Sequence record: NC_041871.1
Source: Escherichia phage Murica
Length of the DNA: 64,000 nt
Direction: 5' to 3' (one strand)
The position numbers and the translations under genes are program-made. This document shows positions 38,263-52,215 of this stretch, in pieces. Each line of letters opens with the position of its first letter. The stretch's first letter is position 1. Under the pieces are notes generated by a model that saw nothing but the letters and a program-made list of their open reading frames with translations, ran no database searches and was not told the origin of the DNA.

Positions 38263-39739
38263 CACACAATTAGCTGCCCGGCTAAAGTGCTGGAGCACCT
38301 ACAATACATCTTTCAACTAAATTTCCCACCACCACAATCACTTACCTTCCACACATGACTGTTTGCTTGTTTAGTGAGCAGTCATGCCTTGACATTCTTG
38401 CCTATCCTGATAAAATTAAGTTCTTCTCTTTTCTTTTACCGAGTAATTCGGGTTTTCTGTTCTCTTCGGTTTGAAGGGGTATGGAGATACACCTGAGTGA
38501 ACATGGTGAACAACCGAACATTTGGCTATGGCATTAGCATGGCGAAGCGGACGGGTGACGAAAGAGGGGCCGGAGGACACCAGTCACTGCCATATGATAT
38601 ATGGGTGATAACCTGAAGAGTCTGAATAAGTGTTTAAGTACCAGTCAGAGGAAAAGGTGAATGGTAGCCGAAGGGGGAGGGGGGTTTCTTGTATCTTTAA
38701 TTTGTATATTATGTATACACTCGTAAACCAATCTCATCTGAATCTGTTTACCACACAAAGTAGATAGGGACAAATATCACCTATTAAACTTGAATTATTT
38801 ATAGAAAATACCACAACACCACTTAAGTCTTTGATTTTACACACAAATCCTACAGATATTCAACCTCTATATTTAACATATTCATAACATATTCCATACT
38901 CTACCTGTCTGATCAATTTACCCAACCACATCCTCCATATTTTCCCTGTCTGTACCACCCCTGCCCCGCCGGGAGTCCCGTCATATCTGGCTTTCCAGCA
39001 AATATCACACCCACAAATATCATTGCCTGAAGAGGGTTTCATCCCATAGTACATGCCTTACCTGAAGAGCGCTTCATACACCACGTAAATTTTTTAATTT
39101 ACCCCCCCTCCCCGCCGCCGGAGTGGTCGGCTTTTCCCACACAGGCCTGAAGAGTCAGCCAGAAATATCTGAACAGGTCCAGTTATACCACGATTTTGAC
39201 CTGACCGACAGGAGTGCTGCCAGGCGGACGGAATGGGAATACTTCTCATTCTTATAATAATTCTCAAATATCGAGGCAGTGAGGCAAATTAATAGGTGAG
39301 GCCGTTCACACAGTGGCACAACATTTGCAATCTATTTTGTGAGGGTGAATGAGAATACCTATCATTGTGAGAACTGTTATCATTACGGGCAATTTAACAT
39401 AATACCCATTATGCGCACCACTGGCGATCCATACAGGGATTGATAACATGAGTTACAGTTTACGCATATAACAATCATATTTCTTACTATTTGTGTGGGA
39501 TATAGTTAGCAGCCGATAGATTAGATATTGACCTGTGGACTTCCAACCGTCTAGACGTCTAAACGCCCACACAACAAGGATTATACATACATTACTGAAT
39601 GTAAACAGGGCCGCAAAAATGCTACCATACCAGATTGTAAATTTTTCATGCAGCACTTGACAAAGAGGAGAAAAACTTGTCTGACACAATATGACATACT
39701 GGGCACATTAAACACACTTTAGACTTAATTGACATGCCT

Positions 39740-39862
39740 GACTGTTTACGCTGTCACTATTCACGCTATTACTATTCACTCCCTTTACTGTTCACGCTCT
39801 TACTGTTTACATGCTTAATGGTTTACATGACCAATAGTTTACATAGCTAACTATTTACATGG
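39740..39862. repeat. array of eight tandem 15-17-bp iterons
   Basis: Head-to-tail units ending TT(T/C)AC(G/A/T) with 15-16-bp period (e.g. ctgtcactattcacg, ctattactattcact, ctcttactgtttacatg, ccaatagtttacatag). Confidence 0.75.
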
Positions 39863-39871
39863 AAATGATAA

Positions 39872-40153
39872 GCCATGCCATTCGTTTGCATGATAACTAT
39901 TAGCAAGTTAATAATCTTTCGCTGGCTATGCCAGGTGACCTTTGGTCACCCCTTCGGGTGTTTCTATGACATAATATAAAAGCAGGGCAACTATTAGAAG
40001 ATCTATAGTTGCCTTGCTTGTTATGTCATGATTAACTAAATACAAGGCAACTATGATCTGATTAATAGTTTGCAAACAAACTATCACGGGGGGTGATGGT
40101 TACTGCTTTTATATTATGTCGCGACTCCGTCGCGCCATGCCATTCGTTTGCAT
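39872..40153. repeat. 262-bp dyad-rich element bounded by exact 20-bp direct repeats
   Basis: GCCATGCCATTCGTTTGCAT at 39872-39891 and 40134-40153; internal inverted repeats GGTGACC-ttt-GGTCACC, GGCAACTAT..ATAGTTGCC, GACATAATATAAAAGCA / TGCTTTTATATTATGTC. Confidence 0.75.
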
Positions 40154-40765
40154 AGTTGCCTTATTGTTACAGATAAAATAATTGTATTGTTAATTATTTC
40201 TTATCTTTCTCTTAGTCATCTAATGATTCCAGTCAGTATAGTAATGTACAGTAAACATTAGACGACTAAAGATTTATATGCTTATAATAACTTACAGTGA
40301 CAATTTCGGACTGTTTACGAAAAATGTTGACACCTGAGCCGATTTATGTTATGCAGTTTACACGAATAATTATTTTATGCAGGTATTGACTATTCCGTTA
40401 TTCTATGGTCGGAATAAATACTTAGCAGTCTATAGAATGGTGACGCTACGTGAATTCTGGAATTTAGTGGCTATAGTTATACCCGATTTTTCACGTAGAA
40501 CACGCTTTTGTGGTTATGTAAGTGTATGACTTATAAAGATTTTTAGTTGTTGACAAGACACTGAAGATATGCATCAGGTTAAATTTTGTGCAATAGCTGC
40601 ATTACGTGCAATTTTGGAAGGAAAAACGTGTAAAAATGGCCCTGCTACCACACAATGAAAGATTATGCAATAGCTATTTTATATGTATGTTTGTACAGTG
40701 TGTGGGATTGATGGCTAGTCAATTATTCCACTTGCCAGGTGGGGACGTTTGTGGTAGGAGAAATA

Positions 40766-40798
40766 CAGACAAAAAGAAAGGGGCCTTTTAAAGCCCCT
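40766..40798 (-). terminator. intrinsic terminator for minus-strand gene 40817-41236
   Basis: Minus strand: AGGGGC-N8-GCCCCT followed by TTCTTTTTGTC. Confidence 0.7.
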
Positions 40799-40816
40799 GA
40801 TAGTTTAGTTAAGAAA

Positions 40817-51114: not shown

Positions 51115-51458
51115 GATTTTTTATCCTCTTTGTTAATTAGTGCGGTGTTGTTCACCTTGCGATAATAAGAATAACAAGAACTGCCCGAGCTGTCAACCAT
51201 TATGTAAAATTATTTTTTTGGGTAGAATTCTCCAGCCGCCACCCCTGCCAGGTTTGCAAGCTTTCACTCTCCCACCTGGTCAGTTAGGTCCTGCTAGGGC
51301 TGGCCCCGCCAGGTTGCAGCAGTTGACGCACTATGTTAGAAAAATTTTTTGAAAAGTGTTGACAACGGCCCCACCAGGTGGCACAATATACCTATCGAAA
51401 GGACGGCAGGCACCGGTGACGGGGGAGACAACCACTGGGGATGGGCGCTGCATAAAAT

Positions 51459-51477
51459 GAGAACGGTTATCATTATC
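51459..51477. promoter_or_regulatory. Fur-box-like AT-rich palindrome, site 1
   Basis: GAGAACGGTTATCATTATC; 11-nt TTATCATTATC identical to one arm of the Fur box consensus GATAATGATAATCATTATC. Confidence 0.4.
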
Positions 51478-51502
51478 ATTTAAAAATTTATGCAAAAAAT
51501 CC

Positions 51503-51533
51503 TTGCTTTCTTTGTCCTGTGTGATACTATAAT
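51503..51533 (+). promoter_or_regulatory. candidate promoter inside non-coding island
   Basis: TTGCTT-16-TGaTACTAT (extended -10) overlapping TATAAT at 51528-51533; no ORF downstream. Confidence 0.35.
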
Positions 51534-51594
51534 AACAAGCCGGGGCAACAGGGGCCGGGAGACAATCACCGGGCCTGCCCGTTATTCTGCAAAC

Positions 51595-51613
51595 GAGAAT
51601 GATTATCATTCAA
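51595..51613. promoter_or_regulatory. Fur-box-like AT-rich palindrome, site 2
   Basis: GAGAATGATTATCATTCAA; 13-nt AATGATTATCATT identical to the Fur box consensus core. Confidence 0.4.
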
Positions 51614-52215
51614 AATTCTAAATGAGAACTCCTCGCATTTAATAAATTTAATTAGCACGCTAATTACACTCCGTAACAATTTACTATAAAATAGTATCCA
51701 CTAAAATATTCCCATATAGAAATTTTAAAAATCCATTTCTGAAAACGAAAAATCGATTTCGTCCCTAAAAATTTCAGGCCTAGATCCGGAACGATTTCCA
51801 GAAAATCCGATTCAGAAAACGAAAAACAGATCGAGTACTGAGAAATTTATCGAGAAAAATTTTCAGAAAATCCAAGCCCTGAAATGAAAAGTAGATCGAG
51901 TACCTGGAAAGCTGCACCGCAACTTCAAGATAGTGGTTAGATTGTTACCATAGAAGGTCAAGGGTAAGTGGAGGAAGTTCTAGTAGAGGGAGGTTAGCAT
52001 GTGTGGGAAATCTATAATGGTGGCCTGGAATATGGTGCAAACGATAGGATGAGTTATTCAGCTTGTCGCGCCTACTCTGAAAAATCCATTTTAGTTTTCG
52101 ATCCATTTTCTGATTTTCTAAGAATTTTAAAATATCCGGCCCGGTGAAATATCAAAAGGAGGAAATCCATTTTAGAAATCCTCCTTATACTTGATATGCC
52201 AGGAATTTTCAAGTA

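Follow-up and report, generated by a model that had tools for sequence, protein, structure and literature searches.

Fur-box-like dyads in non-coding islands of Escherichia phage Murica and related motif arrays in other large lytic phages

Why would a strictly lytic phage carry what look like operators of a host iron regulator in a part of its genome that encodes no recognizable protein? The question is raised by a 64,000-nucleotide stretch of Escherichia phage Murica (NC_041871.1; the whole stretch is called the window below), in which a sequence-only reading had pointed out two palindromes resembling the enterobacterial Fur box. That reading proposed iron-responsive control by host Fur or, as an alternative, operators of a phage repressor that prefers AT-rich dyads. 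The strings on which it relied are present, TTATCATTATC at 51467-51477 and AATGATTATCATT at 51598-51610, and each recurs letter for letter in the reverse complement of GATAATGATAATCATTATC. The overall match that it had put at about 15-16 of 19 positions was reproduced (16/19 for 51459-51477 and 15/19 for 51595-51613), and just one further 19-mer in the 64 kb reaches 15/19 of the classical Fur consensus. The 19-mer frames had to be moved: the dyads are centered at 51465 and 51601, 3 bp to the left of the frames first drawn, a displacement that fits the view that the classical 19-bp Fur box consists of two overlapping single-dimer sites (PMC2189734). The real unit is a 19-bp dyad of 9-1-9 architecture with the family consensus AATGAGAATnATTCTCATT. 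When the window was searched for this dyad with up to three mismatches, four matches were found versus 0.05 expected. Two are the palindromes already noticed, hereafter box 1 and box 2, and the others start at 39232 and 39348. As matches the two palindromes stand, but they are not the complete set, which also includes a degenerate box at 51621-51639 and a second cluster at 39232-39384.

The sites were scored with a symmetric palindromic 19-bp matrix (16.7 bits) built from 12 DNase-footprinted Fur regions of E. coli K-12. The footprint coordinates of Table 3 of Chen et al. 2007 (PMC2189734) were transferred to NC_000913.3 and a recognizable box was confirmed in each region. Scores of the native operators on this matrix run from 12.4 to 25.2 bits, and their leave-one-out mean is 17.9 bits. 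Box 1 (21.2 bits) and box 2 (23.1 bits) lie inside the range of the footprinted operators and above that mean, and the footprinted fecI operator, TATGAGAATGGTTATCATT, is identical to box 1 at 17 of 19 positions. Overlapping sites at a 6-bp offset are typical of native Fur clusters (PMC2189734). Box 1 has such a partner (19.4 bits), as do sites in phages T5 and phAPEC8, but that of box 2 scores only 11.1 bits. In first-order Markov sequences of 64 kb only 0.005 sites of at least 20 bits were expected, and the top score in 200 trials was 20.2 bits. No site of 20 bits or more was found in 296 kb of unrelated viral DNA, and, outside the two clusters, none of 16 bits or more in about 140 kb, made up of the remainder of the window and a further 77 kb from the closely related LL12 genome. 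The scoring against background that the sequence-only reading had suggested thus speaks for the boxes: chance or AT-richness is rejected by the Markov shuffles and the natural-DNA controls, and the occurrence of Fur-type sites is confirmed. Judged from these sequences, the sites are very probably functional protein-binding operators of the Fur type.

The surroundings of boxes 1 and 2 are 95-97% identical to the Vequintavirus genomes LL12, FFH2 and rV5 (rV5-like lytic myoviruses of E. coli). Across 10 aligned Vequintavirus genomes with an overall identity of 89-98%, box 2 is unchanged in nine, the sole change falling on the uninformative central base, and the variation of box 1 is limited to G or A at position 11. 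The secondary box that overlaps box 1 is missing in four of the 10. The boxes are also conserved beyond the genus. Mydovirus, Seunavirus, Certrevirus and Phapecoctavirus phages, as well as IMG/VR contigs, have boxes at the equivalent place, past a conserved rightward promoter and leader, and the second of the two promoter-leader-box units described below is about 80% identical in other genera by distant BLAST matches. In Mydo, PVP-SE1, CR8, phAPEC8 and the IMG/VR contigs the first box, which is orthologous to box 2, reaches 17.5-26.1 bits. The dyad is perfect in PVP-SE1 and departs from the consensus at only the first base in CR8, and many relatives carry AATGAGAATGATTATCATT, which at 26.1 bits outscores any native operator of the training set. 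All relatives except PVP-SE1 have arrays of two to four boxes in exact 29-bp phase (phAPEC8, CR8, Mydo and the contigs L014, L051 and L084). In all of the genera examined, and in Aeromonas phage 2L372D, the box array is followed by GATCGAG(A/T)(A/C)C repeats.

The boxes of Murica lie in an island of about 1.1 kb (51115-52215) that is poor in open reading frames (ORFs) and is flanked on both sides by blocks of small minus-strand early genes. A host origin of the island was rejected, there being no match in 5,426 E. coli genomes. Repeat analysis resolved the island into tandem units of about 131-142 bp, in each of which an A/T-rich tract similar to an UP element is followed by a promoter that faces rightward, then by a GC-rich leader with GGGAGACAAyCACyGGG and then by a Fur-like box. 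Two such rightward units occur in Murica; in both, the putative promoter is of the sigma-70 type and the GC-rich leader between it and the box is 55-60 nt long. Since both boxes sit in this tandemly duplicated unit of about 136 bp they are paralogues rather than independent events. That the locus is a non-coding island with promoters, in a phage that is strictly lytic, was borne out, P2 being detected by a promoter scan and P3 recognized by conservation. P3 falls under the threshold of the scan and we infer it from the recurrence of CTTGC...TAT..T at equal spacing in nine diverged sequences from at least five genera and from its near invariance within the genus. Its predicted elements are a -35 sequence TTGCTT (51503-51508) and an extended -10 sequence TGaTACTAT (51522-51530) that overlaps TATAAT (51528-51533), preceded by an A/T-rich tract at 51479-51500. 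Both promoters face rightward, opposite to the early genes on either side. Counted from the predicted starts of P2 and P3, the boxes are some 55-75 nt downstream, and box 1 in addition precedes the P3 start by about 72 bp.

Table 1. Features of the main island and of the second box cluster (positions in the window; bits are scores on the Fur matrix)
Feature	Sequence or elements	Position	Strand	Evidence and remarks
Box A1	AATGGGAATACTTCTCATT	39232..39250		2 mismatches to the family dyad; 16.4 bits
Boxes A2 and A3	AATGAGAATACCTATCATT and TGTGAGAACTGTTATCATT	39348..39384		starts 18 bp apart; 16.6 and 15.1 bits
Promoter P2, sigma-70 (predicted)	TTGACA-17-CACAAT, TG before -10	51359..51387	+	promoter scan 10/12; nearly invariant in 10 Vequintavirus genomes
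Unit B leader, GC-rich	contains GGGAGACAACCACTGGG	51394..51455	+	direct-repeat family D8; paralogue of P3 leader
Box 1 (site 1 of the sequence-only reading)	AATGAGAACGGTTATCATT	51456..51474		Fur-type 9-1-9 dyad, center 51465; 21.2 bits
Secondary box, overlapping, 6 bp downstream of box 1	AACGGTTATCATTATCATT	51462..51480		19.4 bits
Promoter P3 (putative)	TTGCTT-16-TGaTACTAT	51503..51533	+	inferred from conservation
Unit C leader	GGGAGACAATCACCGGG...CCTGCCCGTTATTCTGCAA	51538..51591	+	conserved across genera (alignments A1, A2)
Box 2 (site 2 of the sequence-only reading)	AACGAGAATGATTATCATT	51592..51610		Fur-type dyad, center 51601; 23.1 bits
Box 3, degenerate copy	AATGAGAACTCCTCGCATT	51621..51639		exactly 29 bp past box 2; 8.5 bits
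AT-rich repeats (three, 65-74 bp apart)	GAAAAyGAAAA...GATCGAGTAC	51710..51910		repeat family D1; downstream of boxes; iteron-like

The same motif was found in phages of other families. The left terminal repeat of phage T5 contains an array of Fur-type boxes and half-boxes (AY587007 9473-9636; locus L113 1367-1530) with scores of up to 26.1 bits. The array coincides with the injection-stop (iss) region, where the annotation gives merely palindromes E-I and direct repeats C, and it spans the first-step-transfer shear point calculated to lie at about 9618 (bioRxiv 10.1101/866236). The study in question discusses DnaA boxes and calls the iss elements repeats and palindromes; Fur is not mentioned (bioRxiv 10.1101/866236). 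The T5-like phage DT571/2 has the same motif arrays (L013 6369-6990), and in Aeromonas phage 2L372D the motif follows a promoter and leader and precedes the GATCGAG-type repeats. T5, like Murica, is a large lytic coliphage, and its arrays of AAATGAGAATCATT(A/C)TCATT likewise occupy a large region that is non-coding and rich in repeats. Short repeats specific to the phage come next in both, in T5 nine copies of TGTGCAAATCCGAC. T5 differs in that it belongs to another family (Demerecviridae), homologues of its pre-early proteins being undetected in a Vequintavirus genome, and in that its array has many half-sites, a 23-bp spacing and adjoining DnaA boxes plus a LexA-box-like palindrome. The latter, palindrome D (TACTGTATAAATATACAGTA, AY587007.1 9330-9349; L113 1224-1243), is a near-perfect match to CTGT-N8-ACAG, which we take to be the LexA SOS-box consensus, and it adjoins both the known DnaA boxes and the Fur-type array. 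Given these three kinds of site, the T5 iss region resembles a cluster of host-regulator sites. No LexA or DnaA boxes like those of T5 were found in the islands of the window.

The manner in which the boxes vary is that of a protein site. The 28 distinct array members show 54 deviations from the dyad, of which only 4 are balanced by a compensating change in the other arm, and G6/A14 mismatches occur in 9 of the 28. The half-sites vary independently toward the consensus, which argues for the site of a dimeric DNA-binding protein rather than an RNA hairpin. The opposite view, that the palindromes are hairpins of the P2 and P3 non-coding transcripts (a terminator, a processing site or a small RNA module) that resemble Fur boxes incidentally, can point to the location of the boxes within the predicted transcripts of conserved promoters and to perfect dyads that could give 6-8 bp hairpins of -4.5 to -6.2 kcal/mol. 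However, the hairpin of box 1 reaches merely -1.8 kcal/mol, the terminator scan gave no terminator-like site, no U-tract follows the boxes, and Rfam at permissive thresholds matched nothing in the window between 49 and 54 kb nor at five related loci. Leaders plus boxes fold no better than shuffled sequences (z of -0.7 to -1.7). The unit B leader, essentially unchanged across the genus, has an unremarkable RNA fold (z = -1.7), and the consensus fold of the unit C leader is weak (-8.15 kcal/mol, a single covarying pair and a covariation term of -0.39 kcal/mol; z = -0.7 for the single sequence). We consider the hairpin explanation very improbable; a terminator and a known RNA family were both rejected. 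A coding function of the region seems more improbable still. It would make the Fur-like strings codon artefacts or AT-rich chance matches within a 92-residue minus-strand ORF (51331-51609) that runs across the two boxes and the invariant leaders and has been annotated in rV5 (gp193), FV3, the BASEL phages, EmilHeitz, WalterGehring and Mangalyan. The ATG of this ORF lies inside box 2 and has no Shine-Dalgarno sequence, T runs of variable length occur near its 3' end, and the lengths of some insertions are not divisible by three. Moreover, the ORF is not in the LL12 annotation, PVP-SE1, CR8 and Mydo have none across the homologous leader and boxes, and chance matches are excluded by the shuffles and natural-DNA controls given above. 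The ORF that many GenBank records show over the island is probably spurious. A tRNA remnant was likewise rejected, as neither ARAGORN (window and the 3-kb locus L003) nor Rfam detected a tRNA. In Klebsiella phage vB_Kpn_K45PH128C2 (OY978796.1; L003 1420-1573) tRNA features for Lys, Ile and Met are annotated over the homologous island. Since ARAGORN finds no tRNA at L003, the tRNA-Met annotation appears to be misplaced, its coordinates seeming shifted.

Which protein, then, would bind these sites? Of the 9 half-site positions, 8 are the same in the consensus of the phage sites, AATGAGAAT, and in that of Fur, AATGATAAT. Fur contacts a G through Arg57, consecutive T residues through Tyr56 and AT-rich flanks of narrow minor groove through Lys15 (PMC4506495). 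The corresponding bases are kept in the 28 phage sites (G4 in 86%, A7 in 99% and A8 in 90%, the latter two equivalent to T12/T13 of the other arm) and the flanks are A/T-rich. By tblastn neither a T5 pre-early protein (A1, A2 and ten others) nor a Fur homologue was found in the Vequintavirus genome. The 10 ORFs that flank both clusters have no Pfam match and no recognizable DNA-binding domain, and their PHROG families are without known function, these 10 being the ORFs that the scan covered. As no phage protein common to the motif-bearing families was found, host Fur would be the most likely binder: a motif present in unrelated families that have no shared protein is most simply read by a factor common to all of the hosts, and Fur is the factor whose motif fits. 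The motifs of ArgR, RcsAB, Lrp, IHF, Zur and H-NS, which we compared by eye, presumably misfit in spacing or sequence, and this comparison is a lead only. Taking together the different uses that the phage might make of it, host Fur is in our judgment the somewhat probable binder.

Several observations weigh against host Fur. Half-site position 6 is G in 74% of the phage half-sites and never A or C, whereas in native sites it is T in 56%, A in 25% and G in only 10%; this preference could reflect a different binder or shared ancestry. We know of no native Fur operators that have a regular 29-bp phasing, conservation extends into the flank on the left of the first box (CCTGCCCG.TATTCTGCAA), so that the box may belong to a larger element, and tblastn would miss remote homologues of a phage-encoded binder. 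The literature that we searched, which is incomplete, contains no report that links Fur with T5, rV5 or other virulent coliphages. The competing proposal is that the dyads are operators or iterons of a phage-encoded dimeric protein, or of a host protein other than Fur, having a Fur-like specificity that prefers GAGAAT half-sites. The 29-bp array beside AT-rich repeats would then be a landing pad for an initiator or regulator, much like the O-protein iterons of the lambda origin. Besides the G6 bias, the strict phasing and the conservation of flank past the 19-mer, this proposal draws support from the position of the arrays beside conserved phage-specific repeats (GATCGAG(A/T)(A/C)C here and those noted above in T5) and from boxes that lie clear of the -35 and -10 elements. 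In contrast, the motif is common to families in which no shared candidate protein could be detected and the 10 flanking ORFs lack a DNA-binding domain. Many of the phage sites outscore every native operator used for training, and it would be odd if a specificity unrelated to that of Fur produced such scores by coincidence. Moreover, GAGAAT is found in genuine operators, fecI among them, and the Fur matrix has little information at position 6. In our estimation a binder other than Fur is fairly unlikely. The phage repressor of AT-rich dyads put forward by the sequence-only reading shares its fate: it is weakened by the multi-family motif and the lack of a shared binder in the tblastn searches and kept alive by the G6 preference.

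If host Fur is the binder, what would it do there? The explanation that we find best as a whole, and to which we give about an even chance, is that a conserved set of Fur-type operators allows host Fur to act as a roadblock. Metal-loaded Fur dimers, being in the cell already when the phage DNA enters, would occupy the boxes past the P2 and P3 starts and form an iron-dependent gate. In iron-replete cells the rightward non-coding transcripts would be kept short, whereas in iron-starved cells they would extend into the GATCGAG repeat region, against the incoming leftward early transcription. Box 1 may also act on P3 from about -72, and since each amplified genome has at least six good sites, a sizeable share of cellular Fur might be soaked up as a side effect. 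A roadblock would be the most economical mechanism because the boxes are downstream of the starts rather than over -35 or -10 elements and because the leftward promoter match is weak. That match, TTGAAT-18-CAGAAT over box 2 (8/12), is the only promoter-like sequence over the box and is present in about half of the lineages. A classical Fur-repressed promoter was rejected, this sole candidate being weak and inconsistently conserved. Note that the lack of the classical geometry, in which the operator covers the -35 and -10 of a strong promoter, also counts against a Fur reading of the boxes. The specific iron-gating mechanism, which rests on the arrangement of predicted elements, is put forward tentatively and may well be wrong.

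Fur might also bind for other reasons. Multicopy Fur sites derepress the Fur regulon, which is the principle of the Fur titration assay, and phage genomes could in this manner act as a sponge that derepresses host iron uptake and, for example, feeds phage nucleotide metabolism. Alternatively, Fur could be a ready-made host protein used to build a nucleoprotein structure on incoming DNA, as perhaps at the T5 injection stop, where the boxes straddle the calculated shear point. The number of good sites per genome, their disposition in two clusters that bracket the early-gene block and their absence from promoters are consistent with both versions. However, T5 breaks down host DNA early (10.1101/866236), which excludes titration as a function common to the families, and a sponge would not need a fixed place after a conserved promoter and leader. 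We consider titration or architecture as the primary function improbable.

Comparison with known systems indicates that the boxes are best regarded as Fur-type operators in a new setting rather than as a new kind of element. Like those of Murica, the native E. coli operators of fecI, fepB, entC, fhuF, sodA and others are 19-bp 9-1-9 inverted repeats having the half-site consensus shared at 8 of 9 positions, as in the single-dimer 19-bp 'M9' model of Fur operators (Chen et al. 2007, PMC2189734). The phage boxes further resemble native operators in scores that fall in or over the native range, in the site that overlaps box 1 at a 6-bp offset and in the near identity of fecI and box 1. Native operators differ in usually lying over the repressed -35 and -10 elements, whereas the phage boxes are about 55-75 nt downstream of promoters and in 29-bp-phase arrays, have G rather than T as the dominant base at half-site position 6, and are carried by a lytic phage instead of a chromosome.

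Host regulator sites on phage DNA have precedents. The stx1 promoter of Shiga-toxin prophages is regulated by Fur, stx1 and fur being the subject of reference 3 of PMC2189734, and PhoB and NtcA boxes occur in cyanophages. As appears to be the case here, these are operators of a global host regulator that tie a phage function to a nutrient signal. They overlap the promoter of a defined protein-coding gene, and the stx1 phage is temperate; the boxes of Murica form conserved arrays in a strictly lytic phage with no recognizable coding gene under their control. The lambda origin, in which four 19-bp dyads bound by O protein lie beside an AT-rich region, offers a second parallel, there being several phased 19-bp imperfect dyads that adjoin an AT-rich repeat stretch and are entered by transcription from a nearby promoter. 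Here the spacing is 29 bp and the dyad has the operator sequence of a host regulator and is common to unrelated phages.

Conservation of Fur-type arrays across phage families seems, as far as can be told from the literature that we searched, to have gone unreported. That at least three unrelated lineages of large lytic phages of gamma-proteobacteria carry conserved arrays of host-Fur operators in non-coding control islands is a broader claim that we regard as possible but doubtful. The lineages are the rV5-like Vequintavirinae together with Stephanstirmvirinae, the T5-like Demerecviridae and the Aeromonas 2L372D-like phages. Were it true, Fur would be recruited to incoming or replicating phage DNA, where it would serve as a gate, either for early non-coding transcription or for a repeat region that resembles an origin. 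It would also be part of the long-unexplained T5 injection-stop complex and progress of infection would be tied to the iron state of the host. Phages of the rV5-like and T5-like groups used in biocontrol and therapy would then read or perturb host iron status through the host's own regulator. Iron limitation is normal in the gut and in infected tissue, and infection efficiency could hinge on iron. The proposal gives a candidate account, directly testable, of the non-coding islands of rV5-like phages and of the repeat and palindrome region of the T5 injection stop, both unexplained so far.

The second cluster of Murica (boxes A1 to A3, Table 1) lies in a stretch whose counterpart in the rV5 genome was marked merely 'non-coding' (PMC3606486). 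Box A3 starts at 39366, and boxes A2 and A3 are kept in pangalan and bov11CS3. The main and second clusters bracket the early-gene block, and the Mydovirus-like contig L017 has an analogous cluster, also in a non-coding region, at a distance of about 10.6 kb from its main array. The region that contains the second cluster (38300-40800) is a 2.5-kb ORF-free stretch at the junction of plus-strand and minus-strand gene blocks. CCTGAAGAG occurs in it four times (38615-39155), ACTRTTYAC is repeated about nine times at intervals of 11-13 bp (39735-39860), and an inverted repeat of some length lies at about 39960-40130. Several GenBank records begin or end within the region. It may be an origin or a genome terminus.

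Other elements were noted beside the arrays. In the genera other than Vequintavirus the array promoter is immediately preceded by a perfect GTAAA-N5-GTAAA direct repeat, TTTGTAAAGAnnnGTAAAGA (L108 1418-1432, L109 1440-1454, L110 1429-1443, L107 1482-1496, L051 4935 and L084 7316 on the minus strand), a pattern that we take to be that of a CpxR box. The element is also upstream of the -35 of other early promoters (L017/L085 and L013 4158) and was not found in the window. In the same genera a second promoter that faces rightward lies upstream of the box unit and is followed by a segment of some 75 nt that is strongly conserved, GCCACCCCACGGCGAAAAGGCGGGGCTAAC(A/G)TACC...GGAAGGTGGATCGCCGGTAG (L003/L108 1325-1400, L107 1393-1470, L109 1345-1420 and L110 1330-1405). 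It looks like a structured non-coding RNA, has no Rfam match and is without a clear copy in the window.

Dense clusters of 4-12 Fur-type boxes were seen in eight IMG/VR loci (L018, L023, L024, L026, L060, L081, L091 and L105), contigs of uncultivated viruses that were found solely through their containing GAGAATGATTATCATTC. Of these, L091 and L023 were tested, and neither has a relative among sequenced phages. The clusters could represent either additional phage arrays or host promoters under Fur regulation in contigs that were misassigned. Within the main island of Murica, fainter copies of the AT-rich repeats of Table 1 occur near 52082-52178. Between 51240 and 51385, CCWGG (Dcm) sites recur in GC-rich CCCnnCCAGGT motifs at 51247, 51276, 51308 and 51374, in or upstream of the spacers of the rightward promoters, and the density of CCWGG is elevated over the early region from 41 to 52 kb.

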